The notes beneath the pieces are model-generated. The model was not told the DNA's origin. It made no database searches and saw nothing but the letters and a program-made list of their open reading frames with translations. 64,000 bases of DNA, taken from NCBI GenBank assembly GCA_964350885.1, contig CAYGKV010000002.1:36427-100426 (forward strand), written 5' to 3'. This document shows positions 37,179 to 64,000 of the stretch, piece by piece. This DNA comes from an uncultured Candidatus Saccharibacteria bacterium (GTDB lineage: Bacteria; Patescibacteriota; Minisyncoccia; Phycocordibacterales; UBA2100). Numbering within the stretch: position 1 is the stretch's first letter; each line of letters starts with the position of its first letter. The position numbers and the translations under genes are program-made.

Positions 37179-38876
37179 ATGGCCACGCAGTTTAATGAAA
37201 AGAAACAAGACGAGCGCCTCCACGAGCTTCGGGGCCGCGAAGAAGAGCAGCTTGCCGAAATGCTCTCCGGAAAATATGGCATCGAGTATGCCGATCTCAC
37301 CTCGAAAGCAATCGACACCGACTCCCTCCGGCTCGTGGACGAAACTACCGCGCGAAGCGCGGAAGTAGCAGGGTTTCGCAAGGTCAACAAAAAGCTCTCG
37401 CTTGCAGTGCGCGCACCTGAACGCCCCGACACGCTACAGGTTGTTGCGGGCCTTGAGCGTCTGGGATACCAAGTTGAGCGTGTGATGGTCTCGCGCGCAT
37501 CGCTTGAACACGCATGGGATCGGTACCACGATCTGTCGTACGCGACCGAGACGGAAGCGGGAATCCTCACTCTTTCAAACGAAACCATCCAGCAGATGCT
37601 CGAGAAGCTGAAGACGATGAAGGATGTGCGCGTGGAGATACAATCTCATGCTGGATCGAAGGACGCACACCGCATTTCCCGCGTCCTCGAGATTGTCATG
37701 GGCGGGGCACTTTCTCTCGGTGCATCCGACATCCACATGGAGCCAGAAGAAGAAACCGTACGGATGCGCTACCGACTTGACGGCGTCTTGATTGAAGTCG
37801 CGACGTTTGACGCGCCGACATACGCCCTGGTTTCTTCCCGTATCAAACTCCTCTCCGGACTCAAACTCAATATAAAAAACGCCGCCCAAGACGGCCGTTT
37901 CTCGATTGTCGTGAATGCAAAAGAAATTGAGATTCGTACCTCAATACTCCCCGGAGCATATGCAGAAACGATCGTCATGCGCGTTCTCGATCCTACGACC
38001 ATCGCGCTCCCTATGGAAGCGCTTGGCTTCGACAAATACCTCGTGGAAATATTTGCCCGTGAAATCGCGAAGCCGAACGGCCTCATACTAAACACCGGAC
38101 CGACCGGAAGCGGAAAAACGACGACCCTCTACGCATTCTTGCGCCAAGTACACAATCCGGGAATCAAGATCGTTACCATCGAAGACCCGATCGAATATCA
38201 CTTGCCAGGGATTGTGCAGACCCAAGTCTCAAAAGACTACTCTTTTGCGCTCGGACTTCGCTCCACACTTCGCCAAGACCCGGATGTCATCATGGTGGGC
38301 GAAATCCGCGATGCAGAAGTCGCCGCAACGGCGGTAAACGCCTCTCTCACTGGCCACTTGGTGTTCTCCACCTTGCACACCAACGACGCTGCGGGCACCT
38401 TCCCCCGTCTTATCGACATGGGAATAAATGCTGACATCTTGGGCGCTGCGCTCACTGTGACAATGGCGCAGCGTCTCGTACGACGCCTATGCCCGCATTG
38501 TCGCGTACCACAGCCAATCGGCGCAGATGATCTGAAAGCCATCGAGCCGATTTTGCGCAACATTCCTCACGCTGATGAACTGCCTGCAAATCGCGAGACA
38601 ATGTGGCTACCTAAGGGGTGCCCCAAGTGTGGCGGCCTGGGATACAAGGGTCGTATCGCCGTTGTGGAGGTAATTCTTATGGATAAAGAGATCGAGGAGT
38701 GCGTGCGGCACTCATCGAGTGATCGTGACATCTGGAAAGCGGCAACACACCAAAAAATCCGCCGAATGGCGCAAGATGGTGTCGTAAAGGTATTACAGGG
38801 GGTCACCTCTCTTGAGGAGCTGGGTCGTGTCATTGATCTTCATGACGAAGTGATGTTAGAAACAATCGGTAATTAA
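37179..38876 (+). CDS. pilB: Type IV pilus/type II secretion assembly ATPase (PilB/GspE family)
   Basis: T2SSE_N-like N-terminus, Walker A GPTGSGKTTTLYA, Asp box, Walker B (DVIMVGEIRD), His box (TLHTND), and a tetra-Cys motif CPHC...CPKC. Confidence 0.85.
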   Translation: MATQFNEKKQDERLHELRGREEEQLAEMLSGKYGIEYADLTSKAIDTDSLRLVDETTARSAEVAGFRKVNKKLSLAVRAPERPDTLQVVAGLERLGYQVERVMVSRASLEHAWDRYHDLSYATETEAGILTLSNETIQQMLEKLKTMKDVRVEIQSHAGSKDAHRISRVLEIVMGGALSLGASDIHMEPEEETVRMRYRLDGVLIEVATFDAPTYALVSSRIKLLSGLKLNIKNAAQDGRFSIVVNAKEIEIRTSILPGAYAETIVMRVLDPTTIALPMEALGFDKYLVEIFAREIAKPNGLILNTGPTGSGKTTTLYAFLRQVHNPGIKIVTIEDPIEYHLPGIVQTQVSKDYSFALGLRSTLRQDPDVIMVGEIRDAEVAATAVNASLTGHLVFSTLHTNDAAGTFPRLIDMGINADILGAALTVTMAQRLVRRLCPHCRVPQPIGADDLKAIEPILRNIPHADELPANRETMWLPKGCPKCGGLGYKGRIAVVEVILMDKEIEECVRHSSSDRDIWKAATHQKIRRMAQDGVVKVLQGVTSLEELGRVIDLHDEVMLETIGN

Positions 38877-40633: not shown

Positions 40634-41749
40634 TCAGGACCGCACGATTCTCAACAACGCATCAAAGCGATAGAATTTTTCCCTCCCATGTGAAACATAC
40701 GGACGCAGTACGCCTGTCTCGACAAATTTCTCGAGCAAGTTGTATACAGTATTTTTACTATTTGCATGAATCGCGTCCCGCACTTTATTCGCCGAGACAA
40801 TCGGTGATTTGAATAACAGATCGAGTACGGTTATGGCGTGGCGTGAACGAATCTTCGGTAATACTTCTATTTTCAAGGTCTCATACAGTTTTTGTATTTT
40901 GGTCGCTAGCTCTCCCGTCATTCGGGCCTGTGCGGCTGTTGCGGTAAGAAAAAATTTCATCCAAGAAATCCAATCTTGATTGGTGTCCACTTTGTGGAGG
41001 AGGTATTGATATTCGGTTTTGTGTTGCTCAAGGTAATGACTTACGTAAAGCACGGGCGTTGGTAAAAGGTTTGTCTGACAAAGAAAGAGAGGGACGATCA
41101 AGCGTCCTATCCGACCGTTTCCGTCCAAGAAGGGGTGTATTGCCTCAAATTGATAGTGAGCTACCCCAATGCGTACAAGAGGATCTTTTTCTACGTCGGT
41201 ATTCAGATATTTTTCCCAATTATTTATCAACTCTTGTATATCGGTATGGACGGGGGGCATGTAGTCTCCCACCCGCACTTGCTTGCGTCGAAAATTACCT
41301 CGATCTTTGTCTGCCCCACGAACGGAACGCAAAAGAACTCCGTGCGTTTTTTTTAGGAGATTCTCCCCAATGGGTCGATTCTGCAATTCGCGCAACGCAA
41401 CTTCCATGGCTCGCTCATAATTCAAAATTTCCATCACATCCTGGAATCGTTGCTCTGATTCTGCGTTACGTGTGTCTTCGCTAGTTTTTTGTTCGGGTTT
41501 GTCAGAAGCCTCGACCTTCAATACATCCTCAAGAGTTGCGCGGGTTCCCTCAATGGCTGAACTCGCTATCGCTTCGCGCTTCCTAAAAGGCGCGATTAGA
41601 ATATCTGGGTCCGGCAATGCGGTTAAAAGACCCTTTAACTCACCGACAGCAGCGTGCGCCGCAGTCAATTCGTCGACGATATCTCCTCGGAATATCTGCG
41701 GTGGTAGTTTTTTAACTTTCGCTGGTTTTTGTTCATCTTTGTTTTCCAT
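40634..41749 (-). CDS. Fic-family protein (AMPylator fold) with a C-terminal winged-helix
   Basis: Canonical Fic motif HPFLDGNGRIGR within IHPFLDGNGRIGRLIVPLFL. An N-terminal inhibitory-helix-like (S/T)xxxE(G/N) region (IASSAIEGT) is also present. Confidence 0.85.
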   Translation of the reverse strand: MENKDEQKPAKVKKLPPQIFRGDIVDELTAAHAAVGELKGLLTALPDPDILIAPFRKREAIASSAIEGTRATLEDVLKVEASDKPEQKTSEDTRNAESEQRFQDVMEILNYERAMEVALRELQNRPIGENLLKKTHGVLLRSVRGADKDRGNFRRKQVRVGDYMPPVHTDIQELINNWEKYLNTDVEKDPLVRIGVAHYQFEAIHPFLDGNGRIGRLIVPLFLCQTNLLPTPVLYVSHYLEQHKTEYQYLLHKVDTNQDWISWMKFFLTATAAQARMTGELATKIQKLYETLKIEVLPKIRSRHAITVLDLLFKSPIVSANKVRDAIHANSKNTVYNLLEKFVETGVLRPYVSHGREKFYRFDALLRIVRS

Positions 41750-43985: not shown

Positions 43986-46388
43986 ATGCGCACCCGCCGG
44001 AAACACACGTTCTCTCAATTGGTTGAGATGAGCTTCATCGCCGCGTTAGCCCTTGGCCTCGTCGCGGTTGGCGCCCTGCTTCTCTGGGCAGCATTCGTCG
44101 CGATCCCCGCGATCAACAGCTTCGAGAGCCGGAGGGTTGCTGAGTCGACGAAGATATTCGACCGCACCGGCAACGTCGTGCTCTACGATGTTCATGGCAC
44201 CATGCGCCGCACTGCCGTACCTCTTGAGGCAATATCGCTCTACATCCAACATGCGTCTGTGGCGATCGAAGATGCCGAATTCTATCAACATTTCGGGTTT
44301 CGCCCACTCTCTTTTTTGCGCGCAGTCATCGCCAACGTAACAACGGGTTCATTCAAGCAGGGTGGCTCAACGATCACGCAACAAGTGGTGAAAAACGCCC
44401 TCCTCACACAAGACAAAACTATTCTGCGCAAAATAAAAGAAATCGTGCTCGCGATCAAGCTCGAGCGAGTATATTCAAAAGATCAAATACTCACGACCTA
44501 CCTCAACGAAAATCCCTACGGCGGCACGATCTATGGCGTACAAGAAGCGAGCCAGTATTTCTTCGGCATTGACGCAAAAGACGTAGACCTTGCACAAGCC
44601 GCGTACCTCGCAGCACTCCCCAAAGCGCCGACATACTACTCCCCGTATGGGAACCACCGCGAAGCTCTCGATGCACGCAAAGATCTTGTTCTCGCAAAAA
44701 TGAAAGAGCACAAACTCATCACCAACGAAGAGTACGAAAACTCAATAAAAGAAAAAGTGTTGTTCCGCGACACCGCGGAAGCCGGAATTAAAGCCCCGCA
44801 TTTTGTTTTCTACATTCGAGAGTACCTCGAACAAAAGTACGGGGCAGATGCAATTACTAACGGCGGCCTCCACATCGTTACCACCCTCGATTACGGTCTT
44901 CAGAAAAAGGCCGAGGAAACGGTAGCCAAGTTCGCCCCGGGAATGCTGAAAAACTTTAACGCGTCGAATGCTGGCATGGTAGCGATAGATCCAAAAACAG
45001 GCCAGGTCCTCGCCATGGTGGGTTCCAAAGGATATTTTGACGAGACGATCGATGGTAAGGTCAATATCGTTTTGTCCAAACGCCAACCGGGCTCGTCGTT
45101 TAAACCTTTCGTATACGCGACCGCATTTGAAAAGGGGTACACTCCCGAAACGACCGTGTTTGACCTGAAGACACAGTTTTCAACCTCCTGCGCGCCGCAA
45201 GACATACAGAATGAGACGGCTCCGTGCTACTCACCAAACAATTTCGACGGCGTGTTCAAGGGGCCTATAACGCTCCGCAACGCGCTCGCGCAATCTGTCA
45301 ACGTCCCGGCAGTGAAAACACTCTACCTAGCTGGTATCCCGGCGTCACTCAGGATGGCGCGCGATCTGGGCATCACAACGCTCGGGGATCAAAATCAATA
45401 CGGCCTTACGCTCGTCCTCGGCGGTGGCGAGGTAACCTTACTTGAAATGACTGGGGCGTACAGTGTGTTCGCAAATGACGGCGTGCGGAATGCTCCCACC
45501 GGGATCTTGCGAATCGAGGACAAGGGTGGAAACATCCTTGAAAGCTACGAAGAAAAAGGGGCGCGGGTTTTGGACCCCCAGATCGCACGACAAATCAATG
45601 ACATTCTTTCTGACAACGTCGCGCGTACCCCTGAATTTGGCGCCAATTCTCCGCTCAACTTCACCGACTACGACGTTGCGGACAAAACGGGAACGACCAA
45701 TGATTATCGAGATGTGTGGATATTGGGCTATACACCGAGTATGGCTGTCGGGGCGTGGGCGGGCAACAACGACAACACGCCGATGGCAAAAAAGATCGCG
45801 GCATTCATCGTCGCTCCGATGTGGCATGAGTTTATGGAATATGCTCTTGGTAAATACTCGTCTCCGACTGATGCTTTCCCGCCCCCGTTGCCGGATTCTG
45901 ATGTCGCCTCATTGCCGGCCGTATTAAACGGGAACTGGAATACGGATCCATCCCAGGGAATCCACGAAATTCTCTACTGGTTAGACAAAGACAACCCGCG
46001 CGCGGGACGCCCAGAGAACCCTTCCAGCGATTCTCAATTTGCCCACTGGGACTACCCGGTCTCTCTCTGGACAGGACGGGGTGGCTCATCGGGTATTAGC
46101 GTCGGGGCAGGAGGAGGTCTTCTTACTAATTTTCAAATCACATCTCCGCGCGCAGGCGCGGTCATTCCTGCGGAGACCCCCCTGGTACTTCGGGCATTCT
46201 CTCCGCGACCAGAAACTATTTCCCACGTTTCGTATTATATAAACAACTCTCTTGTCGGAACCGCCGCCCAGTCCCCGTACGATGTCGAATTTACCCCCTT
46301 TATCCGGGGGGTTACGCTCGTACGAGCGGTCGCTTCGTACCTTGATACAAAGAAAGAAGAGCACACGAGCGTGTTTATGGTTCAGTAA
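43986..46388 (+). CDS. Class A penicillin-binding protein (transglycosylase + transpeptidase) with a C-terminal extension
   Basis: N-terminal TM. GT51 motifs (AIEDAEFYQH, GGSTITQQVVKN). TPase motifs SSFKP, SVN (QSVNVP) and KTG (DKTGTTN). Confidence 0.9.
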   Translation: MRTRRKHTFSQLVEMSFIAALALGLVAVGALLLWAAFVAIPAINSFESRRVAESTKIFDRTGNVVLYDVHGTMRRTAVPLEAISLYIQHASVAIEDAEFYQHFGFRPLSFLRAVIANVTTGSFKQGGSTITQQVVKNALLTQDKTILRKIKEIVLAIKLERVYSKDQILTTYLNENPYGGTIYGVQEASQYFFGIDAKDVDLAQAAYLAALPKAPTYYSPYGNHREALDARKDLVLAKMKEHKLITNEEYENSIKEKVLFRDTAEAGIKAPHFVFYIREYLEQKYGADAITNGGLHIVTTLDYGLQKKAEETVAKFAPGMLKNFNASNAGMVAIDPKTGQVLAMVGSKGYFDETIDGKVNIVLSKRQPGSSFKPFVYATAFEKGYTPETTVFDLKTQFSTSCAPQDIQNETAPCYSPNNFDGVFKGPITLRNALAQSVNVPAVKTLYLAGIPASLRMARDLGITTLGDQNQYGLTLVLGGGEVTLLEMTGAYSVFANDGVRNAPTGILRIEDKGGNILESYEEKGARVLDPQIARQINDILSDNVARTPEFGANSPLNFTDYDVADKTGTTNDYRDVWILGYTPSMAVGAWAGNNDNTPMAKKIAAFIVAPMWHEFMEYALGKYSSPTDAFPPPLPDSDVASLPAVLNGNWNTDPSQGIHEILYWLDKDNPRAGRPENPSSDSQFAHWDYPVSLWTGRGGSSGISVGAGGGLLTNFQITSPRAGAVIPAETPLVLRAFSPRPETISHVSYYINNSLVGTAAQSPYDVEFTPFIRGVTLVRAVASYLDTKKEEHTSVFMVQ

Positions 46389-46425
46389 GAGTTTTTTCCC
46401 TTGAGGACGAGCAAAAACCACTACA

Positions 46426-47520
46426 CTATCGATTCAATGGCATCACGAGATAGAGGAAGCTTGCATCTGAAACGCCACGGATAACAAGAGGCTTCCCAGC
46501 ACCAGCGAAACCAAGCACGACCGAGTCAGACTCGATTACCGGAAGACAATCGGCCAAGTAGCCAATATGAAAATTAATGTCGAGGTCTTCGCCCGAGAGC
46601 GCGGCGTCAATCGAATCCGACATCTCTCCAACGTCAGAACTGCGAGCTGTCGCGCTGAAAATCTTTCGTTTTGGGTACACGTGCAACCCAACATGTTGGT
46701 CGTTTCCAGAAAATACACGCGCCTTCCGTAGCATTTCTGCAAAATCATTTTTAAGTATCGTCGCCTCAGTAGTGGAGGCCTTTGGAATAATTTCTTTATA
46801 GTTTGGAAATGTGCCGTCGACAACCCGCGATACATACCGCACCACCCCGGAGGAAACGGACATCTGAGAATCATCCGCGGTAAGTGTTAGCGCCTCACTA
46901 TCCACCCTCTCAAGTACGTGCGCCAACTCGAGCGCGTGCTTCAAAGGGATAAGGAGTTCGGTTTTGCTTTTTCCTGCGCCTGTAACCATCTTTTCCGCGA
47001 GCCTAAAGGAATCTGTCGCGACACACACAATGTTGCCAGATGAAATGGAAATATACACACTTCCCAATTCCGGTCGGATCATTGAAGGAGATGCCGAATA
47101 CGAAACCGACTGTATTCCCCGCATAAGCTGATCTCGAGAGACAGTCATCCCCCCTCGATCCCGCTCTTCACCAAGCACAGGAAACTCTTCGTGAGGAACT
47201 GTCTTAATAAGCGTTTTCGTCCCCTTTGACTCAACCATTAAATTCCCCTCCTCTGTTTTAAACACAACCCTCTCTCCAGAAATAGATCTCAACGTCTGCG
47301 AAAGAACTACCACAGGAACAGCAACAATTCCTTTTTCCTCAATATCACAAGGGACGACCACTTCAATACCGGCCTCTAAGTTTGTTGCCCTTACAACAAA
47401 CTCACTACCAACATCAAAAAGAACACATGAGAGTACCGGCAACGACTCTTTTTTTCCCGTAATTCTTTCCGCTAACATCACCGCGTTTAGAATTTTTTCT
47501 TTTGTTGTTGTTATCTTCAT
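46426..47520 (-). CDS. dnaN: DNA polymerase III beta sliding clamp
   Basis: Three-domain clamp, about 364 aa. MKITTTKEKILNAV start. Located immediately downstream of dnaA. Confidence 0.9.
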   Translation of the reverse strand: MKITTTKEKILNAVMLAERITGKKESLPVLSCVLFDVGSEFVVRATNLEAGIEVVVPCDIEEKGIVAVPVVVLSQTLRSISGERVVFKTEEGNLMVESKGTKTLIKTVPHEEFPVLGEERDRGGMTVSRDQLMRGIQSVSYSASPSMIRPELGSVYISISSGNIVCVATDSFRLAEKMVTGAGKSKTELLIPLKHALELAHVLERVDSEALTLTADDSQMSVSSGVVRYVSRVVDGTFPNYKEIIPKASTTEATILKNDFAEMLRKARVFSGNDQHVGLHVYPKRKIFSATARSSDVGEMSDSIDAALSGEDLDINFHIGYLADCLPVIESDSVVLGFAGAGKPLVIRGVSDASFLYLVMPLNR

Positions 47521-47734
47521 ATATATTTATATATAAATACTATTACTACTATTAGTGGTGTTGATAGTGTGGAGAAGCTTGTTTCGTGTAATGGTTGTTG
47601 GTGTTTTTGAGTGTTTTGATTTGTTGAGAAGTGTTTGGGTTGGTGTTGGTTGTTTGGGGATAGTATTGATCGTGTAATTTTTATGTGGATTACGTGTTTT
47701 TGGCGCAGTGGATGTACACGTGATATCCACGGAG
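47521..47734. promoter_or_regulatory. Putative oriC: AT-rich block + period-3 TAY repeat + about 150-nt G/T-only tract with DnaA-box-like 9-mers, between dnaA and dnaN
   Basis: Seen directly. 47521-47537 is an AT-only block. 47538-47555 reads tac-tat-tac-tac-tat-tag (bottom strand TAA-TAG-TAG-TAA-TAG). 47556-47700 contains only 5-6 C residues. The 9-mers TGTGGAGAA (47567), TGTGGATTA (47684) and ATATCCACG (47722) are 1-2 mismatches from the TTATCCACA consensus. Confidence 0.55.
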
Positions 47735-49084
47735 TTATGCATGAATGAGTGTGCGAATATGGTCGAGTTCTTTTTCGAGCGCGATGTTTGTTCGCATCTC
47801 TTCTTTAATTTTTTCACATGAATGGATGACTGTTGTGTGGTCACGACCACCAAGCTTCTCTCCTATGGATGGATACGAAACACTAAATTCCTCACGTAAC
47901 ATATACATAATAATCTGTCGCGGCTTAACCACCTCTTTTTTGCGGGTCTTCTCATAGATACTTTTCTCGGCGATATCATAATACTGAGCAATTCGACGGA
48001 CTACCTCGTCGACCGAGACGCCACGGTTTGGCTTTACGTTGTGCTTGATGAGTGCTCGCACGTCTATATGAGAAACAACCTTCCCTTTTAGCTGAGATTT
48101 ACACACAATCATGTTGAGGACCCCCTCAAGCTCGCGGATATTCCCCCGCAAGTTCTCGGCGATATACTGGATGATGTCTTCGGGTATAGAGAAGCCATGC
48201 TGTTCTATCTTGGCCCGGATAATCGCAGTTCGTGACTCGATGTCGGGCTCCGGGATCTCAGCGATCATCCCCGCCCCAAACCGCCCCTTAAGGCGATCTT
48301 CGAGCCCCAGAAGAAGTGCGGGGTGTTTGTCGGAAGAGAAAACAATCTGCTTGTTGTTGTCGCGCATCGCGTTGAAAAGGTGGAACAACTCCTCCTGTGT
48401 TTTTTCCGTATTCGCAATGAACTGTACGTCGTCCATGATGAGGACGTCGTATTGTCGGTACTGATCTTTGAAATTGTTGGCGTGCCCTGCGCGCACCGCG
48501 TTGATGTAGTCTACCGAGAATCGCTCCGAAGTGACGTAAAGAACTTTTTTGTTGGCGTGTATTTTTTTGAAGTAGTTTCCCACCGCCTGGATGAGGTGTG
48601 TCTTGCCATGCCCCGTCGATCCGTAGATGAAAAGTGGGTTATAGGCGAGCCCTGGCCGGTCGAGTATTGCTTTTGCGGCAGCGTGCGCAAGCTCGTTGAA
48701 GGGGCCGACCACGAACGTCTCAAATGTATAGCGAGGATTTAGGTTATCGCGCTTATCAATGTAGAGGGCCTGGAGATCGAGCGCGGCATTTTCGGAGGCT
48801 TGTGTGTGCGAGGCCTTGCGTTCTGTCGGGGTAGAAGCAGAGCGATGCACAACATATTCGACGGTACGAATCGAGCTATCAAGACCCCGCAAGGCCTTGA
48901 GGATCAGTTTATGGTGCTTATCCATAAGCCACTCTTTGACGATCTTCGAGGGCACCGCCACGTGCACAACGCCGTTTTCATGGCTGGCCACGTCAGTGTT
49001 TCGAAACCACGTGCGGAATGAAGCTTCAGACGTTCCCAGCTCTATCTGAACGAGTGCGTTTTGCCACAATTCTCTGTTAGTCAT
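47735..49084 (-). CDS. dnaA: Chromosomal replication initiator DnaA (start moved to MTNRELWQ)
   Basis: Walker A LFIYGSTGHGKTHL, box VII/sensor motifs, and a C-terminal domain IV HTH (HTTVIHSCEKI). The ORF-track start at 49474 overlaps rpmH. The internal ATG at 49082-49084 yields a 449-aa DnaA. Confidence 0.9.
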   Translation of the reverse strand: MTNRELWQNALVQIELGTSEASFRTWFRNTDVASHENGVVHVAVPSKIVKEWLMDKHHKLILKALRGLDSSIRTVEYVVHRSASTPTERKASHTQASENAALDLQALYIDKRDNLNPRYTFETFVVGPFNELAHAAAKAILDRPGLAYNPLFIYGSTGHGKTHLIQAVGNYFKKIHANKKVLYVTSERFSVDYINAVRAGHANNFKDQYRQYDVLIMDDVQFIANTEKTQEELFHLFNAMRDNNKQIVFSSDKHPALLLGLEDRLKGRFGAGMIAEIPEPDIESRTAIIRAKIEQHGFSIPEDIIQYIAENLRGNIRELEGVLNMIVCKSQLKGKVVSHIDVRALIKHNVKPNRGVSVDEVVRRIAQYYDIAEKSIYEKTRKKEVVKPRQIIMYMLREEFSVSYPSIGEKLGGRDHTTVIHSCEKIKEEMRTNIALEKELDHIRTLIHA

Positions 49085-49349
49085 AAATGATATATGTATA
49101 CGTACGTGAGTTCGCGCATTATACGCGGCGCGTTTGCGAAAGAAAGGAAGGGCATGTCGTGCAGCGTTGTTCATAAGGTGTGGATAGGGTGGGGAGATGG
49201 GTTTCGCGAGCGCGATGCGCAAAAGGGTACGGGGCTTTGCCTGCTGGCAAACCCCTGAAGTCTCGCGCCGTCGCGCTCCGAACCCCCTTTTGCGCACCGC
49301 TCTCGCTCGGTGGGGTTGAAAAAAGGAAAAAATCGGGTATAGTGGTCCA

Positions 49350-49484
49350 ATGAAACGAACATGGCAGCCAAAGAAGCGCAAACGAGCAAAAACGCACGGC
49401 TTTCGTGCGCGTAGTATGACCAAGTCGGGTCGAAACGTTCTGGTACGCCGTCGCCGCAAGGGCCGCGCACGCATTTCGGTCTAG
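49350..49484 (+). CDS. rpmH: 50S ribosomal protein L34 (not in the ORF track, 44 aa)
   Basis: Hand translation gives [44 protein letters not shown], which is canonical L34. It lies immediately upstream of rnpA, as is universal. Confidence 0.85.
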
Positions 49485-49488
49485 AATA

Positions 49489-49866
49489 ATGCCATCAAAA
49501 CACCGGCTGTCGCACGCCGAACTCGTTCGCCTCTCGAAAATGAGAGTGGCGCGCACTCACGGGGCGCACTTTTCTCTCACCAGCGTGCTCTTCCCCGAGG
49601 GAGGGAGGCCTAAATTCGCATGTGTGGTGAGCAAGAAGATTGCGCTGCGCGCGGTTGATAGGAATCGCATACAACGTCGCTGTCGAGAGCTTGTCCGCAA
49701 TCAGATCAGCGCGCTTCATGAACCATATGCGCTTGTGTTGTATGCAAAGCGGGGTGCCTCAACCCTGTCATTTGAAGAGACTAGGAAGGATGTAGTGGCG
49801 CTGTTGGTGCGCTCTGGAGTGTTTGCATCAGGCGGCAGGCAGGATACAATCTCTGGAATACAATGA
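49489..49866 (+). CDS. rnpA: RNase P protein component
   Basis: About 125 aa basic protein with KFACVVSKKIALRAVDRNRIQRRCRE (the RNR motif). rpmH-rnpA-yidC synteny. Confidence 0.85.
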   Translation: MPSKHRLSHAELVRLSKMRVARTHGAHFSLTSVLFPEGGRPKFACVVSKKIALRAVDRNRIQRRCRELVRNQISALHEPYALVLYAKRGASTLSFEETRKDVVALLVRSGVFASGGRQDTISGIQ

Positions 49867-51137: not shown

Positions 51138-51980
51138 TTATCTTGCGATTAAGCTTGCCGCGTCCCCGCTCTCGTTTTCACAGTCTCCGATGCTCGAGTT
51201 AAAGCGTGGGTAACCATCTGGACAAGAGAAACCGGAACTCGGCGCTATGTAAAATGACCCGTTTGTTCTTTTGCAAAGCCCTCCCCCGTCGTATGTATCG
51301 TTTTGCGAACACGTTAACTGAGCAGCCCTGAAGACGCACGTTCCGTACGCTGAATCAGCGTACGTACTCATTTGAGCAGCAAGCGTATCACAGACGACTT
51401 TGCCGTCTGCCCCGCTGTAACATCTTTCTCCTCCTGGCGTTTGTGTGCACCACTTGTCGACGGAGGAATTTTGGTCAACTCCCTGCGCGTCAAAGCTCGC
51501 CGGAGGCGCTACTCCGCTATCCCCGTCCACTCCCGGGTGTGCCTGAGAGGTCGGTGAAGTCACTGAATTCTCTCCGATCACATCTAGTGCCTTCAGGCTC
51601 AAAATATCCGGATTGATCTGGTTCAAAATAATCCAAATCGAGAGGAGAAGGAGAAGTCCGAAGGTTACGTCTCCAAGAATTGCTTTTGCTTCACCTTTTT
51701 TACTCCACATGTCCGATTGGCCCATGTAGAGATATCCTGCGTATGCTATTCGCAACACAGCCGCAATTGCGCCGATAATTATCGCGAACCTAAAGAGGCT
51801 GTTGATAAAATCAGAGAAGCTGCCTGGTGTATTATTGTAGAGTTCCCCGAGAGGTCCTCCTTGTGTCCCCGCGAGGGGCACAAATGCGGTCTCAGCGGCA
51901 TACGCCACATATGCCATGGTCAGTAAACTGGCGAACGTGATAAGCGATATAATTCCGATTTGGAAAGAGGCTCGACGCAT
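51138..51980 (-). CDS. VirB2/TrbC-like pilin-fold protein (signal peptide + two hydrophobic helices) with a about 150-aa Cys-rich C-terminal extension
   Basis: Signal peptide MRRASFQIGIISLITFASLLTMAYVAYA. Helix 1 FRFAIIIGAIAAVLRIAYAGYLYM and helix 2 VTFGLLLLLSIWIILNQ. The C-terminal half has about 11 Cys. Last gene of the T4SS-like cluster. Confidence 0.5.
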   Translation of the reverse strand: MRRASFQIGIISLITFASLLTMAYVAYAAETAFVPLAGTQGGPLGELYNNTPGSFSDFINSLFRFAIIIGAIAAVLRIAYAGYLYMGQSDMWSKKGEAKAILGDVTFGLLLLLSIWIILNQINPDILSLKALDVIGENSVTSPTSQAHPGVDGDSGVAPPASFDAQGVDQNSSVDKWCTQTPGGERCYSGADGKVVCDTLAAQMSTYADSAYGTCVFRAAQLTCSQNDTYDGGGLCKRTNGSFYIAPSSGFSCPDGYPRFNSSIGDCENESGDAASLIAR

Positions 51981-51982
51981 AT

Positions 51983-53377
51983 TTATTCTTCAATTCGCAA
52001 GAGCCACAGTGATTTGTCAGCGGCGTTCATAAAGGCAAGGTGTGTTCCGGCTCTGCTAATCGTGAGGTTTTCCATATCTATCGAAGTGCCCGGTTCAGGC
52101 GCGTACAGTATTTCGGCCGTGCCAGCGTTCGTGTCTACTCGCCACAGCACATCTGATGAGTGTGTGGCGCCGCGGTACCAATCGTCGAGGAAGTATCGTG
52201 CCGTAATCCCCTGCGGTACACCGCAGTAAGCCACGGAACTTCTCCCAGGCAACCACACACACTTGTCCGCAATCGTTCGGACAGGTAAGCGGATCATGGT
52301 ACTGCTTGCTTGTGTGTGCGCGAATAAGGTGAGTGCGCCGCCGCTCGATTGTCCGTACAAAAATGCGCCGCCTTCTCTTCCAAGAACGGTGAGTCCGGGG
52401 ATTGAGCGAATGAGTGGGGAGAGCACTCCACTGCTCGTCATTTCGTACGCATAACCGGGCGTGTCGTCGCTTGCCGCTTGCGTGAGGATAATGCGTCCAT
52501 CCGAGAGCCACTGCGAGCGCCAATTTGGTAGAACAGAAGTAAAGATACGCTTTGGTTCGTCGCCATTCCACTTAGAAAGGATCCCGACTGTCCCCAGTCC
52601 TTCGCGAACGAGATAAAACAGGGCGCCTGTTTTTGGGTTTGAAGTGATGTGCATGATGTTTTGCGCGAGGGAAACGTTGGATAGCGTAGCTGACTCGGTT
52701 GCGGTCGAGCCCTCGCCCGTGCTCGTCGAAATTGAACCGACGATCGTTACGATGTCCCCGCTATCGTTCAGTGAGCGTTGCACGATACGCCCGTTCGTGA
52801 AGAATGCCTCCTGGATTTTCGGCAAGAGCGTATTTGTGACTCGGAGCGTCGTCGCCGTCTCAGGATCGGTCTCAAATACATATCCACTTGAGCGCTCGAC
52901 ATACTGCAATCGTTCGCCCTTTCTTGTTTGCACAAAAGACAAGCCAGCCACGGGCTTGTTGTGAATTTGCGAGAATTGTGGCGGGCGCTTAATCGCAGGA
53001 ACGGGAGACTCTCCTGTCGTAACCGATAGCGTAGTCTCTTCGTCGGTCGGCCCTTCTGAGATCCCCGCGGTGAATCCATCGAGAGATGCGGGGTCAGTTA
53101 CTCCCGTCCCCTCTCCTCCGATTATTGAATTCAAGAGTCGGGAGAAGATCCCTGCCTCTGATTTTGGAGCAAAATCTGTTTGCGGAGCCGTACCCTTAAG
53201 AGCCGACACGCCGGTCACACCCGAGCCCCCTTGAGGTGCCCGGTAGCCACGTGCGGTCGCTTCTTGCAAGACTTCCCGTGATTGTGTTTTAAGAAAGAAG
53301 TACCAGCCAGAAAACGCGCCGAGAATGAGGATGATCGTGGCCGCAAGAGCATAGGTGATGATGGTTTGTGTGCGCAT
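51983..53377 (-). CDS. Membrane-anchored extracytoplasmic protein, hypothetical (repeat-rich, possibly a beta-propeller)
   Basis: Single N-terminal TM, then 430 aa rich in Thr/Ser/Gly. No family assigned. The start overlaps the upstream gene by 1 nt. Confidence 0.5.
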   Translation of the reverse strand: MRTQTIITYALAATIILILGAFSGWYFFLKTQSREVLQEATARGYRAPQGGSGVTGVSALKGTAPQTDFAPKSEAGIFSRLLNSIIGGEGTGVTDPASLDGFTAGISEGPTDEETTLSVTTGESPVPAIKRPPQFSQIHNKPVAGLSFVQTRKGERLQYVERSSGYVFETDPETATTLRVTNTLLPKIQEAFFTNGRIVQRSLNDSGDIVTIVGSISTSTGEGSTATESATLSNVSLAQNIMHITSNPKTGALFYLVREGLGTVGILSKWNGDEPKRIFTSVLPNWRSQWLSDGRIILTQAASDDTPGYAYEMTSSGVLSPLIRSIPGLTVLGREGGAFLYGQSSGGALTLFAHTQASSTMIRLPVRTIADKCVWLPGRSSVAYCGVPQGITARYFLDDWYRGATHSSDVLWRVDTNAGTAEILYAPEPGTSIDMENLTISRAGTHLAFMNAADKSLWLLRIEE

Positions 53378-53379
53378 AC

Positions 53380-54432
53380 CTATTGCTCGAAGCTGCCAAA
53401 CTGATCAATAGCCGAGGTGTCTTCCGAGAAGGTGACTCCCCACGATCCCCTTGAGTCCAGATAGTAATTTGTGCTGTGCGCTAAGGTTAGGTTGAGGAGT
53501 GCGATACCACGTGAATTTGCCGCATTGATCGTTATCTTATCTTGACGAGCGTTTGGTACTAGGCGACCGTTGATCCGCCATTCATAGGAGAGCGCAGGGT
53601 CTTCGGCGTGTGTCGCCTGCGCAAAATACGGCACTGCTACGAAGGTCATTTCTGAGCCAGGGACAAACGTGTTTGCGCCGAGCGCCTTGTAGTACATAAC
53701 GCCAAATAGTGGGTGGTCTTGGTACAGGGTGAGGAGGGGCTTCGCAGGAGAGAGAGAAAAGGACGCTTCGTTTACTAATACTCCATCAAGTGAATGCGCC
53801 TCGACGGTGATTTGGTCGGTACCGAAGAGGTTTTGCACAGGAATGATGGCGCTTGACTTGCCTCGCCCCGAGGCGCTGCCAAGAACCTCGCCGTTCTTTT
53901 TCCAGATGAAATTGATCTCGGAATCCGTGAGGTTCGATCCTCCTCTCCTGAAAAGTGGAGCTGCCTGCAGGCGTAGACTGGTCCCTGCTGAGGCGCGTGG
54001 ACGGCCGCGGTAGAAGGGCGGGATGTATGCACTGGAGTCTGATAGAAGATCGATATGGGTGGGGGCAATCGTAGCGCGTGCGATGGCGCTCAGCTCATCT
54101 GGCGCAGCTACGGAGATTTCGACCTCAGTCTCTGTCCCCAGAGTTCCAGCGACAATATTTGCAGTTGTAACACCCTTTCCCCTCGCGATTATTTCACCAT
54201 TCGCGCGCCACACGAGTTCGGATTGTTCGAGATCGAGAATCGAGCTCTGTGCTTCCAGGAGAACCGTGTCTTGTGGCGCTGGATATCGCGGGGTGTAGGT
54301 GATCAGCACAGAATTTTCTATTCCCATGAGCCCCACCTGTGCGTACGTTGGTGCGACGAATATGCCACACATCCCGAGCACTCCCACGAAGAGAGCAACG
54401 TTTCTGCGCGTGCTACCACTCGACGTGTTCAT
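53380..54432 (-). CDS. Secreted hypothetical protein
   Basis: Signal peptide ...GIFVAPTYAQV. The ATGA overlap with the VirB4 gene suggests translational coupling. Confidence 0.5.
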   Translation of the reverse strand: MNTSSGSTRRNVALFVGVLGMCGIFVAPTYAQVGLMGIENSVLITYTPRYPAPQDTVLLEAQSSILDLEQSELVWRANGEIIARGKGVTTANIVAGTLGTETEVEISVAAPDELSAIARATIAPTHIDLLSDSSAYIPPFYRGRPRASAGTSLRLQAAPLFRRGGSNLTDSEINFIWKKNGEVLGSASGRGKSSAIIPVQNLFGTDQITVEAHSLDGVLVNEASFSLSPAKPLLTLYQDHPLFGVMYYKALGANTFVPGSEMTFVAVPYFAQATHAEDPALSYEWRINGRLVPNARQDKITINAANSRGIALLNLTLAHSTNYYLDSRGSWGVTFSEDTSAIDQFGSFEQ

Positions 54433-56363
54433 TGTGCTGTTGGAGCAGCGGGAGGCTGCGGGTTGAAATTTACCGGAGCGGATTGAACCCGAGTAGCTTC
54501 GGCCGTGGTGTTTTCGGCGTTTATCCTAGCGACGTCCTGCCCCGCGTCATTTGCCTCGGCGAGTTCTTGTTTTGCTTTTTTGATGGCGAGGATTTGCGAC
54601 GGATCGGAGGTGATGATCTGATCCTCGGTGTAGGAGGCAATTACTTTGATCGCTACGTGTTTCAATCCTGCAAAGAAGATCCCCTCCCCCACGTCCGATT
54701 CTAGGAGTAGATACTTTTCCTCATCCGACAGTTTGAATGTTTGTTGGACGAGGTCTACTGATGTCGGTGATTGTCGTAGGAGAAGCTGGATAGAGGAGTT
54801 CGTAATCATTGCGGTACCGTACGGAGATGTTAGGAAGTCGTTTACGTCTTGCGTGATCGTCGAGAGTCCCAGGTAGTATTTACGTCCACGCTTTGCAATT
54901 CCGAAGAGAAACGATGCCGTGTCTTGCGATTTCATCATCCACCACGCCTCGTCGATGATGAGGAGACGCTTGCGGAGCTCTTTACGCACGGCATTCCAAA
55001 TGTGGTGTGTAATGATGTACATTGCAACGGGCTTCAAGTCGTCCTCCATGTCGCGTACGGAGAAAACGACAAGTTTTTTGTTCATATCGACGTTGGTCGG
55101 ACGATTCATAAATCCAGACCACGTGCCCTTGGTGTACTTTGAGAGCCGTGCGACCAGTGAGTCAGAGCCTTCCATACCAGAGAGCACCAGTTCGAAATCC
55201 GAGAGGAGCGGTGGCTCAATTGAGGCGAAATTCGCATCTGCCGTAATGTCTTTCAAAGCGTACGTTTCAGTGATGGCGCGGTCGATCACCGCGTCTTCCT
55301 CCGGCGTGAGGCCTCCGAGCATGATGCGGAAGAGGCCGACCAGCGTGATGATGTTGCTGCGCAAAATATCGGATGGATTTTCATCCTCGCGAGGGATTGG
55401 GAGATCAAAAGGATTGATGTGGTGTTCGGAAGAGAGGGAGATGTTGAAATATCGTCCGCCGACGGTGGTTGCCAGGTATTCATACTCACGCTCAGGGTCG
55501 ATCACAATCACTTCGGTATCAAACATGAGGCTGCGTAATATCTCGAGCTTTGTCGTGTAAGATTTACCGGCGCCTGATTTTGCAAACGTTACGGAGTTGT
55601 AATTTTCGAGTGAAAAACGATCAAACAATATGAGTGAAGAGTTGTGTCTGTTGATGCCGTAAAGAATTCCTCGATCGGACGTGAGGTCGAATGAGATAAA
55701 GGGGAAAATGGAAGACAGCGGCGCAGAATTGAGTTTGGTGTGGACATTGATCTCATCCATCGCAAGCGGAATCACCGAGCGGAACCCCTGCTCCTGTTGG
55801 AAGAGCGCAGGTCGGATGTAGACGAGGCGTGATTCGAGGATCGAACGTACCTCGGTTTCCACTTTGTCGATCTCCTCTCGCGTGCTTCCGTAGATGGTGA
55901 GGTACAGGCCCACCTCGAATATACGCTCCTGCGCCTGTTGGAGCGAATTGCGTAGCTGCTCAAGGTCGGTGTAGGCGGTGTCGAGCATAGGATCGCGCAC
56001 CATTCCCTTCCCTTCTCGCGAACTAATCTGACTCTGCACCTCAGCGACTTTCTTCTGGAATTTCCTCAGCATTTCATTCGTGTCCATGGGGTGAATGAAA
56101 ATAGAAATATCGATCACCTTGTCCATGTTGATGATCGGAGCAAACCAGCCTGTGGTAAGGAAGCGCGGATAGGAAATGACAAAAAATGTGCGCGCGATCT
56201 TCTCTCCAAGGTCAAGCTCGCGCGAGCTGATCCGAAGCGCGTGCGGAGCTATCACATCCTGTAAATCCAAGATGCCCGATTTATAAATTTCTTCTGGAAG
56301 GACGGGTAATACATTCGGGCTTTCCGTCGGTTTCCTCCGTTTGAATAAGTCTATGAGTGCCAT
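54429..56363 (-). CDS. VirB4/TrbE/TraC-family type IV secretion ATPase (C-terminal about 640 aa)
   Basis: Walker A VTFAKSGAGKSYTTK and Walker B LLIIDEAWWMMKSQD (DEAW is typical of VirB4). Confidence 0.85.
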   Translation of the reverse strand: MALIDLFKRRKPTESPNVLPVLPEEIYKSGILDLQDVIAPHALRISSRELDLGEKIARTFFVISYPRFLTTGWFAPIINMDKVIDISIFIHPMDTNEMLRKFQKKVAEVQSQISSREGKGMVRDPMLDTAYTDLEQLRNSLQQAQERIFEVGLYLTIYGSTREEIDKVETEVRSILESRLVYIRPALFQQEQGFRSVIPLAMDEINVHTKLNSAPLSSIFPFISFDLTSDRGILYGINRHNSSLILFDRFSLENYNSVTFAKSGAGKSYTTKLEILRSLMFDTEVIVIDPEREYEYLATTVGGRYFNISLSSEHHINPFDLPIPREDENPSDILRSNIITLVGLFRIMLGGLTPEEDAVIDRAITETYALKDITADANFASIEPPLLSDFELVLSGMEGSDSLVARLSKYTKGTWSGFMNRPTNVDMNKKLVVFSVRDMEDDLKPVAMYIITHHIWNAVRKELRKRLLIIDEAWWMMKSQDTASFLFGIAKRGRKYYLGLSTITQDVNDFLTSPYGTAMITNSSIQLLLRQSPTSVDLVQQTFKLSDEEKYLLLESDVGEGIFFAGLKHVAIKVIASYTEDQIITSDPSQILAIKKAKQELAEANDAGQDVARINAENTTAEATRVQSAPVNFNPQPPAAPTAQ

Positions 56364-56369
56364 ACGTAT

Positions 56370-57029
56370 TTATTTCTCGATCGTTATCGGCTTTCCCTCT
56401 TCTCCAGGGTTGAACATCTTGTAGAGGAGCTCAATAGCTTCTTCCGTCCCCAGCTGCACGGTGCGCACCCCGGTGCGCACGAGACCCTGCTGCACGATTG
56501 AGATGCGTTGTTCGAGCTGGGAGACTTGCTCTTCGAACGTTCGGTTGGATTCTTCAGAGCTTTTCGTTTTCTTTCCAAAGGGGAGGAGCGAGCTGATCCC
56601 CTTTCCTGTGATAGCGATAGATGGAGAGTATGGGACGCTGATAAAGAAATTTTTTGTCATGATATTCGCCGCTTCAGTGAAGCTCTTGATGAATTGGATG
56701 TATTCGCGGATCTGTATTCGCATGAGGTCGTCAAGCTGCGCTTTGTATGCGACCTCGAGCGTTTCGATGTATGGGCGAATATCGAGCATGCGCGATTGTA
56801 CGAATATTTGCACTGAAAAATCGAGCGAGTTGAGGAAGTTTTGGAACTGTATGATAAAGGCGGTTTGTTCATCCTCTGATTTCAGTGCGAAGTTGAGTGA
56901 AGATGCAAGGAGGATCGCTCGCAGGCTACCGTCTTTGAGGACGATGACACCGTCGCGGACCTCGGAAACAGGCAGGAAATCCTGTGTAGATTTGGCACTT
57001 GCGCGCGGGTTTTTGTTTTGTGTAGGCAT
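56370..57029 (-). CDS. VirB4 N-terminal-domain-like protein encoded as a separate ORF 6 nt upstream of the ATPase
   Basis: FLPVSEVRDGVIVLKDGSLRAILLASSLNFALKSEDEQ resembles the start of VirB4/TraC N-domains. A TAA stop at 56370-56372 is followed by an ATG at 56361-56363 in a different frame. Confidence 0.5.
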   Translation of the reverse strand: MPTQNKNPRASAKSTQDFLPVSEVRDGVIVLKDGSLRAILLASSLNFALKSEDEQTAFIIQFQNFLNSLDFSVQIFVQSRMLDIRPYIETLEVAYKAQLDDLMRIQIREYIQFIKSFTEAANIMTKNFFISVPYSPSIAITGKGISSLLPFGKKTKSSEESNRTFEEQVSQLEQRISIVQQGLVRTGVRTVQLGTEEAIELLYKMFNPGEEGKPITIEK

Positions 57030-57038
57030 GGCGCATTA

Positions 57039-57554
57039 TTAAAGCTCTTGTGCTCGGCCCGTGGCTTCGCGGGCGGTGCGTACCGGGGCTGCGATATTCT
57101 CATGGCGTCGCAAAGTATCTAGCTCTCCCTCGCTCACCCCCTGTGCAACACGATCCTTGATGTCCAAGCTCCATGAAAGCTCATGAAGTTTGCTGTCGGA
57201 GAGTTTCGGGGTGTACAGCCGCTCTCCTTCTCTCGGAGCAAGCTTCCCGATGATTGGCGGAATCACATTCTTCTTGTGGACGTTGTTCCAGAGGTACAAT
57301 TTACTGCGTAAAAAAAAGAAGAATGCATTTTCGAGTCCGATAATGAATGGTCGACCGTTGAATTGGAAAAATGCGAGACTCGCGACAAGTCCGCCGGTAA
57401 TGGCAATCAGGGGTCCGGCTACATAGATCGGTAGTATGCGCCACATAATATAGGAGGCACCGGCGCCACCGCCAATGTAGATGAATTGTTTGAAGGTCAA
57501 AGGACCGAAAATCTTGTCTTCAACCTCAATAAATTGCGGCACTTGAAACTGCAT
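57039..57554 (-). CDS. PrgI/VirB3-like small 2-TM protein
   Basis: MQFQVPQFIEVEDKIFGPLTFKQFIYIGGGAGASYIMWRILPIYVAGPLIAITGGLVASLAFF matches the PrgI-family pattern. It sits immediately upstream of VirB4, as in Gram-positive-type T4SS. Confidence 0.5.
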   Translation of the reverse strand: MQFQVPQFIEVEDKIFGPLTFKQFIYIGGGAGASYIMWRILPIYVAGPLIAITGGLVASLAFFQFNGRPFIIGLENAFFFFLRSKLYLWNNVHKKNVIPPIIGKLAPREGERLYTPKLSDSKLHELSWSLDIKDRVAQGVSEGELDTLRRHENIAAPVRTAREATGRAQEL

Positions 57555-57596
57555 GGTTCCATTATATCAGTGCGCTGAGCGGTACTTTGGCGTTGT

Positions 57597-58169
57597 TCAC
57601 GCTGGCGGCTCTCGATACGGATCGTCTTCGACGGATGGTCGAACTGACGAAGGCTCTCCCGCTTTGTACGCGGCAGAAATCGGGGCGCGCTCTACGCGTT
57701 GGGTTGGTGGCGCGGAGGGCGGGGTCGCGGGGAGAGTGGGGGCGCTTGGTGTGTTGGAAGGAATCGCTGCCTCCGAAAGAATCTGCGCCCGCGCCGCCTC
57801 TACTCCGCTCACTTCCGCCGCTTTTGCATCGGGATGTTCGAGTAGCCGCTCTAGTTCTCCCCTGATCGGCTCGAATACAATCTTTGAGATGTCTGCGGCC
57901 AACGAGGCCGACATCTCAGGAGAAATATCGAGATCGGCTCGCAAATTTTCTGCGAGCTTGTCGGTTTCTTGGAAGCCCAGCAGCGTAAGCAAAACTTCAT
58001 TTTCAAGTAATTGCCATTGATCCACATGCAGTTTATTTGTACTTGCCAGTTCACGCATCTGTTTTTCGACATCGGCGGACGTGATTGCATCTTGCACAAC
58101 TTTCGGCAGCTCTTTAAAGCGCGCGCGGATTTTTTCGTCAAGATCATTTTGCGAATTTTTTGTTTCCAT
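57597..58169 (-). CDS. Hypothetical acidic cytoplasmic protein with a Pro/Ala-rich tail
   Basis: ORF within the cluster. No TM and no family assigned. Confidence 0.45.
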   Translation of the reverse strand: METKNSQNDLDEKIRARFKELPKVVQDAITSADVEKQMRELASTNKLHVDQWQLLENEVLLTLLGFQETDKLAENLRADLDISPEMSASLAADISKIVFEPIRGELERLLEHPDAKAAEVSGVEAARAQILSEAAIPSNTPSAPTLPATPPSAPPTQRVERAPISAAYKAGEPSSVRPSVEDDPYREPPA

Positions 58170-58172
58170 AAT

Positions 58173-60542: not shown

Positions 60543-60544
60543 AT

Positions 60545-63955: not shown

Positions 63956-64000
63956 TGATTTTTTCTGCACGACCCATGCACCAGCGAGTATTGTGAGTGC

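Follow-up and report, generated by a model that had tools for sequence, protein, structure and literature searches.

Where does chromosome replication start in the Candidate Phyla Radiation (CPR), and does the initiator DnaA meet its origin there in the way known from model bacteria? The question is raised by a 64-kb stretch of DNA (contig CAYGKV010000002.1 of assembly GCA_964350885.1, hereafter the window), in which a 214-nt spacer between dnaA and dnaN (47521-47734) carries DnaA boxes, an array of triplets, and A/T-only DNA. Rankings of skew, duplex stability, and run length apply within this window. The genome is that of an uncultivated Candidatus Kaiserbacteria (CPR/Patescibacteria); its DnaA is identical to an entry of the public protein collection, and the named homologues at 83-88% identity are Kaiserbacteria or Patescibacteria. 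We are confident that the spacer, together with a cluster of three boxes upstream of dnaA, is the chromosomal origin of replication (oriC) of this genome. It is a Bacillus-type basal unwinding system (BUS), a known kind of origin, in a lineage-wide variant, because, with respect to the boxes, the purine-type trios are on the other strand, the Asn of DnaA that contacts adenine is replaced, and a base of the trios co-varies with a motif of DnaA. The two genes that border the spacer are both read from the minus strand, called the coding strand in what follows:

46426-47520, minus strand: dnaN, DNA polymerase III beta clamp, 364 amino acids (three beta-clamp Pfam domains)
47735-49084, minus strand: dnaA, 449 amino acids (Pfam; alignment to the Bacillus subtilis DnaA chain of PDB 8BTG)

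The cumulative G-C curve of the window reaches its minimum at 47549, inside the triplet array, with a skew of -0.054 to the left and +0.047 to the right. The sign of the skew changes across the spacer in 64 of the 66 relatives with enough flanking sequence. The large open reading frames (ORFs) to the right of the origin are mostly on the minus strand, as they are on the left, hence the switch is not an effect of the coding strand. For the comparison, one genome per species was scanned, which gave 80 relatives whose DnaA is 79-93% identical to that of the window. All 80 have dnaA followed by dnaN, and all 78 with an rpmH match have rpmH diverging from dnaA on the other side (rpmH<-dnaA->dnaN). 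The spacers have diverged even among the closest relatives, apart from sharp conserved islands, which are the elements listed below: boxes, trio array, and AT block occupy equal relative positions in 80 other species, while the sequence between them has diverged. A preliminary description of this DNA, made from the sequence alone, had proposed a putative oriC here and a comparison of the spacer across relatives. The skew minimum, the boxes, and the conserved elements support the proposal, and the comparison finds the triplet array and the boxes conserved in 80 species.

The family layout comprises five co-oriented boxes plus one or two inverted ones; the two boxes closest to dnaN abut and are followed by a 4-nt gap, five TAR triplets (R = A/G), and TATTTATATA-like A/T DNA up to the dnaN ATG. 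In the window, these elements are as follows (offsets are counted from the first TAR on the coding strand):

47711-47731, plus strand: inverted box pair beside the dnaA stop codon, ATATCCACG at 47723-47731 (two mismatches) and the weaker ATGTACACG at 47711-47719; it recurs in relatives as TGTGGATAN-N3-TGTGNAYA, at -177 and -165
47684-47692, minus strand: co-oriented DnaA box TAATCCACA, one mismatch, conserved position near -138
47655-47663, minus strand: co-oriented DnaA box CTATCCCCA, two mismatches, conserved position near -110
47622-47630, minus strand: co-oriented DnaA box TTCTCAACA, two mismatches; TTYTCAACA stands at -76/-78 in at least 50 of 80 spacers
47568-47576, minus strand: distal box of the tandem pair, TTCTCCACA, one mismatch, counterpart of B. 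subtilis box 6 (family consensus TT[A/C]TCC[A/C]CA, at -22)
47559-47567, minus strand: proximal box of the pair, CTATCAACA, two mismatches, counterpart of B. subtilis box 7 (family consensus NTATCCACA, starting at -13)
47555-47558, minus strand: G+C-rich 4-nt gap separating the proximal box from the first TAR (CCAC on the coding strand; family consensus [C/G]-C-A-C, the last C in 67 of 80)
47540-47554, minus strand: trio array on the coding strand, 5'-TAA TAG TAG TAA TAG-3', a perfect 3'-[G/A]AT-5' consensus on the strand that carries 5'-TTATCCACA-3'
47538-47555, plus strand: trio array on the strand of canonical polarity (the TGTGGATAG-box strand), 5'-TAC TAT TAC TAC TAT TAG-3', the longest (TAN)n run of the window
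47521-47539, no strand: A/T-only block of 19 nt, presumed DNA unwinding element; all relatives have an AT-rich block after the trios

Six sites in the spacer are within two mismatches of TTATCCACA. A search allowing one or two mismatches had been proposed in the preliminary description, which reported three such 9-mers; these are real, but the count was too low. Averaged over the family, a spacer contains 3.8 forward and 1.4 reverse boxes at this threshold, against 0.69 and 0.24 in shuffled sequences, an enrichment of about 5.5-fold. Their conserved offsets are approximately -138, -110, -77, -22, and -13 in the forward orientation and -177 and -165 in the reverse one; the spacer of the window has boxes at all the forward offsets and, in reverse, at -177. 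The gap after the tandem pair is as long as that of the CCGG type in Firmicutes, Deinococcus, and cyanobacteria. The A/T-only block is present as it had been described, and the least stable 41-nt duplex of the window (-36.7 kcal/mol, the next being -41.7 and the median -57.9) is found at 47512-47552. The ATG of dnaN directly adjoins this block and is followed by about ten A-rich codons, such that 43 of the 50 bases at 47496-47545 are A or T.

The rules used to search for BUS (Pelliciari 2021) ask for a box with at most two mismatches at 0-16 bp from the trios, an optional second, co-oriented box with at most four mismatches at 0-3 bp from it, and a row of three or more NAN triplets on the strand given as 3'-AATAGGTGT(box)...-5'. 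The window has all of these: TTCTCCACA (one mismatch) is 12-13 nt from the first triplet, CTATCAACA (two mismatches) abuts it, and eight triplets with a central A follow on the plus strand (3'-GAT TAT CAT CAT TAT CAT AAA TAT-5'). The module made of two boxes, NNAC, five TAR, and an AT block is found in 80 of 83 Kaiserbacteria loci. It is also found in 54 of the 77 scored loci of a more distant set of metagenomic relatives (L081-L160), whose DnaA is 52-61% identical to that of the window.

Two side observations concern this distant set. These relatives are AT-rich, and the two boxes of their tandem pair share one base (TTATCCACATATCCACA), which resembles the 9+8 arrangement of B. subtilis boxes 6 and 7. 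Several of the spacers are far longer (300-590 nt), with the box-trio module remote from dnaN (e.g., L081, L106, L133, and L143). In the window itself, the plus-strand 9-mer TCGTGTAAT occurs twice, at 47584-47592 and 47670-47678, 86 nt apart, and its C's (47585 and 47671) bound the C-free run described below. We rejected this repeat as an element and treat it as chance: it is absent from relatives, and the probability that such a repeat arises by chance in 214 nt is about 0.1.

The array can be read on either strand. Counted from the boxes, the plus strand is 3'-GAT TAT CAT CAT TAT CAT-5'. The bottom strand has TAA or TAG five times, as the preliminary description had stated, and of the six consecutive TAY it had listed five are correct, the sixth being TAG. 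It had also likened the array to the 3'-[G/A]AT-5' trio consensus, and here the sequence does match, but on the strand opposite to that of B. subtilis relative to the orientation of the boxes. Written 3' to 5', the trio strand of B. subtilis is AATAGGTGT-TTAGGTGT-CCGG-GAT GAT AAT GAA GAT GAT (Pelliciari 2021, Table S1). Its 5'-TTATCCACA-3' strand continues as GGCC-CTA CTA TTA CTT CTA CTA, and the TAG/TAA trios are thus on the complementary strand, with their 3' end toward the boxes. In the window, in contrast, the box strand continues as 5'-CCAC-TAA TAG TAG TAA TAG-3', so the purine-type trios are on the box strand itself. In full, the two box strands are TTATCCACA-AATCCACA-GGCC-... in B. subtilis and TTCTCCACA-CTATCAACA-CCAC-... 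in the window.

We defined polarity from Table S1 of Pelliciari 2021 and from PMC10316083, and scored the flipped and canonical arrangements symmetrically. The flipped arrangement was called in 80 of the 83 Kaiserbacteria loci and 54 of the 77 scored distant loci, most of the others being ambiguous arrays made of TAA only; five of six control origins from Firmicutes and Deinococcus were called canonical. The canonical polarity is also that of Escherichia coli, Thermotoga maritima, Helicobacter pylori, Deinococcus, and Aquifex (Pelliciari 2021, Table S1), and likewise, in the part of that survey available to us, of cyanobacteria, Dictyoglomus, Synergistetes, and Geobacter. PMC10316083 gives the same trio strand for B. 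subtilis, H. pylori, and T. maritima.

Conservation of the triplets was assessed in an alignment of 80 spacers (the window and 79 relatives). On the minus strand, the second position is A in 80 of 80 in each of the five triplets, the first is T in 75-77, and the third is a purine in 72-79. The central A of the plus strand is kept in 75-77 of 80 and becomes G in the loci with CAR triplets. Natural variants of the array are CAA/CAG (L036, L072, L076, and L161-163), AAG (L030, L096, L104, and L148), and CAA (L101, L107, and L130); all of them retain 3'-[G/A]A-5' on the minus strand, while on the plus strand the central A is lost. When a DnaA-trio is strictly defined by a purine at the 3' position of the canonical strand, only the first triplet, GAT, qualifies; triplets 2 to 6 are YAT, as they almost always are in the family. 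Among the eight possible strings GAT-YAT-YAT-YAT, GAT TAT TAT TAT alone occurs in the available part of Table S1 of Pelliciari 2021. We rejected a wall of in-frame stop codons after dnaA as an explanation of the array: relatives differ in the distance that separates the dnaA stop from the array (179, 181, 193, and others), which is no constant multiple of 3, and neither CAA nor CAG is a stop. We also searched for a box that would give the TAR strand a partner of canonical polarity (5'-TGTGGATAA-3' downstream of the array, inside dnaN) and found none; the search returned nothing but TGAAGATAA-type matches, which coding explains, in 14 of 80 loci at the ATG-AAG-ATA start.

The variation in the trios is matched by variation in DnaA. 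In B. subtilis, N187 contacts the central adenine, DnaA captures the 3'-[G/A]A-5' dinucleotide, and I190 and I193 flank the third, uncaptured base of the trio. Aligned to the chain of PDB 8BTG, the residues of interest are:

DnaA, B. subtilis to window: N187 to V; I190 to I; I193 to V; R202 to K; E228 to E

Val, Ile, or Met at the position of N187 is the rule in the family, whereas among 119 diverse DnaA representatives this position is N in 95 and Q in 5. Loss of this Asn was considered as the cause of the flipped trios and rejected, since TAR is found on the box strand also in distant relatives that have N or Q there. Loci also differ in the initiator-specific motif (ISM) of domain III. Three Kaiserbacteria loci with CAA/CAG triplets carry SERF-TTDFL instead of SERF-[AS][VIM]DY[IML]. 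Four more TTDFL proteins were present among the homologues; DNA could be obtained for three, and all three have CAA CAA CAG CAA CAG after the tandem boxes. Half of the six CAR loci were thus predicted from the protein and then confirmed in the DNA. In total, all 6 CAR loci have TTDFL, against 0 of 77 TAR loci; the latter all have [AS][VIM]DY[IML] or TTDYI. Because L069 combines TTDYI with TAR, the change tracks the residues aligned to F189 and I190. The six CAR loci fall into three to four separate groups in crude neighbor-joining trees, without support values, of DnaA (motif masked) and of DnaN.

Which strand does DnaA then hold? The probability that it holds the canonical one, the plus strand of the window (3'-GAT YAT YAT YAT YAT YAT-5'), we judge to be about even. 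Its geometry would be that of every studied origin, and the C before the first TAR is kept in 67 of 80 spacers, which makes the box-proximal triplet a perfect 3'-GAT-5'. This reading has a precedent, because YAT-rich predicted trios exist in some gammaproteobacterial origins with a single box: in the available part of Table S1 of Pelliciari 2021, E. coli-type predicted BUS of Pseudoalteromonas haloplanktis, Buchnera, and Aggregatibacter have them on the canonical strand, and the Pseudoalteromonas string, 3'-CAT CAT CAT TAT CAT TAT-5', is nearly identical to the plus strand of the window. Those origins differ in having a single box, a 10-13-nt spacer, no link to dnaA-dnaN, and a rearranged architecture, as opposed to tandem boxes and a 4-nt gap. 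That DnaA holds the opposite, minus strand is a possibility we take seriously while doubting it somewhat. The conservation pattern, 3'-[G/A]A[T/C]-5', fits this strand better, because the invariant A, the 3' purine, and the variable T/C/A at the 5' position match the published trio logo, and those of the plus strand do not. The minus strand is further favored because all variants keep the 3'-[G/A]A-5' dinucleotide captured by B. subtilis DnaA, and because the T-to-C change co-varies with the residues aligned to F189 and I190, I190 being a residue that flanks this third base in the B. subtilis structure. If the minus strand were the one read, the base flanked by I190 and I193 would be exactly the one that changes from T to C. 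That both strands are held seems unlikely. For the trio consensus itself, a form 3'-[G/A]A[T/A]-5' was reportedly given by Richardson in 2016.

We tentatively propose, as a possibility short of even, that in Kaiserbacteria and a wide circle of related CPR the DnaA oligomer reads the 5'-TAR-3' strand, 5' to 3' away from the tandem boxes, opposite to every characterized origin. Reading of the TAR strand would imply another geometry of filament loading, e.g., recruitment by folding back or swivelled domains III and IV, and the natural pairs of TTDFL with CAR and xVDYI with TAR would be a ready specificity switch for studying how DnaA recognizes single-stranded DNA (ssDNA). If the canonical strand is used instead, the accepted trio sequence is widened to 3'-YAT-5' in an origin of ancestral type. 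In either case, Firmicutes, Deinococcus, cyanobacteria, and others have the tandem boxes and 4-nt gap too, but with the purines of the trios on the other strand, so more than 130 genomes break the polarity rule of the model organisms. The co-variation of trio base and DnaA motif is a natural experiment on how DnaA reads ssDNA and on which strand it holds.

Several points weigh against an origin of this kind, or against its flipped trios. The B. subtilis origin is inactive once boxes 6 and 7 are turned around with respect to the trios, so reading of the TAR strand needs a different geometry. Of the trios on the canonical strand, the first alone fits 3'-[G/A]AT-5', the others having a pyrimidine where B. 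subtilis DnaA captures G, and the adenine-contacting Asn of B. subtilis (N187) is Val or Ile in the window family. The co-variation may stem from a single event, given the lack of support values in the trees. The skew minimum is that of 64 kb and not of the chromosome, and the spacer must also hold the signals for dnaN expression, which could explain part of its conservation.

On our preferred reading, initiation would proceed in steps. DnaA-ATP would bind the five co-oriented boxes of the spacer, the last two of which abut and lie 4 nt from the period-3 TA array. The tandem pair would then direct a head-to-tail DnaA oligomer onto one strand of the array, with one protomer per triplet, through the ISM. 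This would open the array and the adjoining A/T-only block at the dnaN start codon, the helicase would be loaded at the opened site, and forks would depart both ways. What the analysis shows directly is the set of elements with their order, spacing, and conservation, the switch of skew, and the co-variation of the ISM with the trio base; the binding of DnaA to the spacer, its unwinding, and the choice of strand are what we infer from these.

The origin also has a second part, upstream of dnaA:

49168-49198, minus strand: three co-oriented DnaA boxes with an 11-nt period, ATCTCCCCA-cc-CTATCCACA-cc-TTATGAACA, in 58 of 79 relatives
49118-49123, minus strand: -10 hexamer TATAAT of the dnaA promoter, within GCGTATAATG; a GCGTATAATG-like element is found in 77 of 79 relatives
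49350-49484, plus strand: rpmH, ribosomal protein L34 (Pfam), read away from dnaA, with rnpA, yidC, and a jag-like R3H gene after it

The box-like site that had been noticed between dnaA and rpmH, TGTGGATAG at 49179-49187, is real and is the middle one of the three boxes. The cluster is exactly 72 nt upstream of the GCGTATAATG -10 element, a spacing that is constant in nearly all relatives, and it looks like a module of DnaA autoregulation doubling as a second half of the origin. Since box clusters flank dnaA on both sides, at 49168-49198 and in the spacer, the origin region is in two parts as in B. subtilis, or bipartite like that of H. pylori. As a side observation, the ORF called mechanically for dnaA is 47735-49474 (579 amino acids); the true start is 49084 according to homologues, Pfam domains, and the conserved promoter, and the 130 extra codons cross the box cluster and promoter of the rpmH-dnaA spacer.

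How close is this origin to those already known? The preliminary description had compared it with the incC-type architecture of B. subtilis. The likeness is real in the location between dnaA and dnaN, in the further cluster of boxes upstream of dnaA, in the order of boxes, trios, and AT-rich block beside dnaN, in the two co-oriented, near-abutting boxes, and in the 4-nt G+C-rich gap followed by a period-3 TA array; it is inexact in that the trio strand is flipped. Other differences from B. subtilis are the replacement of N187 by Val/Ile and of R202 by Lys, the common orientation of all five upstream boxes, and the near absence of G from the coding strand of the box region. The oriC of T. maritima (PMC10316083) is similar in that TAG repeats (the TAG x3 'eTrio') are essential for unwinding and ssDNA binding, a five-box cluster flanks the unwinding element, and an inverted box is tolerated within the cluster. 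It differs in that its TAG strand is canonical (3'-box...GAT GAT GAT-5'), its boxes are 12-mers, and recruitment of the single strand to box-bound DnaA, rather than a continuous filament, has been proposed. The origin of H. pylori is bipartite too, with dnaA between its two parts (PMC8235120, as cited in PMC10316083), whereas the polarity of its oriC2 is canonical and its box consensus species-specific. The part of the BUS survey table available to us (Pelliciari 2021) lists no CPR genome, and our literature search found no paper on an origin of CPR/Patescibacteria. The present analysis is thus a first anatomy of a CPR origin, which aids in closing and orienting genomes and in estimating growth rates from coverage in a large uncultivated lineage.

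The spacer could be merely regulatory, with replication starting elsewhere: the boxes would then serve DnaA autoregulation or control of dnaN, and dnaN would have its promoter, or an unstructured leader without a Shine-Dalgarno sequence, in the AT block and TA repeats. Such a role would account for a dnaN that lacks a Shine-Dalgarno and has 19 A/T-only nt before its ATG, for an RNA of the coding strand of the box region that is near-unstructured (minimum free energy, MFE, of -0.7 kcal/mol against a median of -38), and for boxes at a constant 72 nt from the dnaA promoter, as in autoregulation. Against it, the skew switches exactly at the array, many phyla have a BUS with this very geometry of tandem boxes, 4-nt gap, and period-3 array, and it is the ssDNA-binding motif of DnaA, not any expression element, with which a base of the trios co-varies. 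A consensus scan for promoters and terminators found none in the spacer, sigma-70-like promoters included, its only results being the rpmH promoter (49316-49343) and chance-level sites. The two roles are also not exclusive, the B. subtilis origin being likewise within the dnaA-dnaN operon, and we regard a purely regulatory spacer as quite improbable. More remote still, to the point of being hardly credible, is that the spacer encodes a small hydrophobic protein on the G+T-rich plus strand or a structured non-coding RNA. An open frame of 40 amino acids with a GTG start does exist (47555-47677), but we rejected this antisense protein because neither its length nor its sequence is conserved: in relatives the median length is 23 amino acids and the peptides are unrelated. 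Against an RNA stands that neither strand is able to fold; known families were rejected after an Rfam scan of 46300-49600, with E-values up to 1, which gave nothing in the spacer.

The composition of the box region raises a separate question:

47556-47700, plus strand: G+T-rich, C-poor box region, the putative region of DnaA oligomerization, including an 85-nt C-free run

The C-free run covers 47586-47670, the next longest run free of any single base in the window being 46 nt. The stretch of about 150 nt almost without C that had been reported is there, with 4 C at 47550-47699 against a window median of 40. The extreme G+T bias is therefore present, but it is not an independent signal of an origin. 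The boxes themselves have no C on the plus strand, but the DNA between them is just as poor in it (3 C in 89 nt). The five co-oriented boxes, which are free of G on the coding strand, explain the bias in part. In relatives, C exceeds G on the coding strand of the box region in 79 of 80 (median skew -0.41); G varies from 1% to more than 20% and is at most 10% in 37, which places the window, with 3%, near the extreme of G depletion. Neither strand of the region can form hairpins, a clear consequence of composition: the MFE of 47556-47700 is -0.7 and -14.6 kcal/mol as RNA (median -38) and -0.8 and -1.2 as DNA (median -16.8), and no random window is as near to zero. Selection against secondary structure beyond composition is not supported in the relatives (median z of -0.5 against their own shuffles), and no conserved inter-box motif was found among them.

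The bias may be a mutational footprint, a selected platform, or an unstructured leader of dnaN. As a footprint, it would arise because the plus strand is often single-stranded near the origin, where C-to-T and A-to-G deamination deplete C and A if coding constraint is absent. This is possible, and agrees with the retention of composition rather than sequence (inter-box segments diverge even in the closest relatives), with the excess of C over G in nearly all relatives to a very unequal degree, with a sign equal to the leading-strand skew of the right replichore, and with a low structure fully accounted for by composition. It agrees less with a magnitude (skew of about 0.6-0.9) that is roughly tenfold the replichore skew, with the canonical model, which keeps the box region double-stranded, with the weak bias of the rpmH-dnaA spacer (-0.13), and with G-free boxes, whose co-orientation makes part of the bias a by-product. 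A function of the bias appears more doubtful: C/A-rich DNA between boxes would provide low-affinity, co-oriented DnaA sites or a hairpin-free landing platform, guiding a one-directional DnaA-ATP oligomer to the trios or easing helicase loading. The five co-oriented boxes all aimed at the trios, inter-box DNA rich in words similar to the box core (CAACA, CCACA, and ACACC), two hairpin-free strands, and the recurrence of the bias across the family speak for it. Yet the property seems dispensable, as 26 of 80 relatives have more than 15% G (15-25%) in the same segment with the same boxes and trios, and the lack of both a conserved inter-box motif and selection against structure beyond composition further weakens it.

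Some observations concern the neighboring genes. Downstream of the array, dnaN lacks a Shine-Dalgarno and has 19 A/T-only bases before its ATG; in relatives 9-36 nt of AT-rich DNA follow the trios. For translation to begin, dnaN must depend on a context that is unstructured or leaderless and that overlaps with the unwinding element. Beyond dnaN lies the following gene:

43986-46388, plus strand: class A penicillin-binding protein

Further left of the origin are a Fic/DOC family protein (40634-41749, minus strand) and a type II/IV secretion ATPase (T2SSE; 37179-38876, plus strand). To the right, 51138-63970 is a long run of minus-strand genes, head-on to the rightward fork. This block contains a type IV secretion pilin-like gene (51138-51980), a TraG/VirB4-like P-loop ATPase (54429-56363), and several large ORFs without a Pfam match (51983-53377, 53380-54432, 56370-57029, 58173-60602, 60545-62206, and 62203-62973), and is probably the Patescibacteria type IV secretion cluster of PMC12102498. 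The most A-poor 100 nt of the window (58744-58843, with 6 A) are inside one of these unannotated ORFs (58173-60602, minus strand), where the regional AT skew is -0.23.

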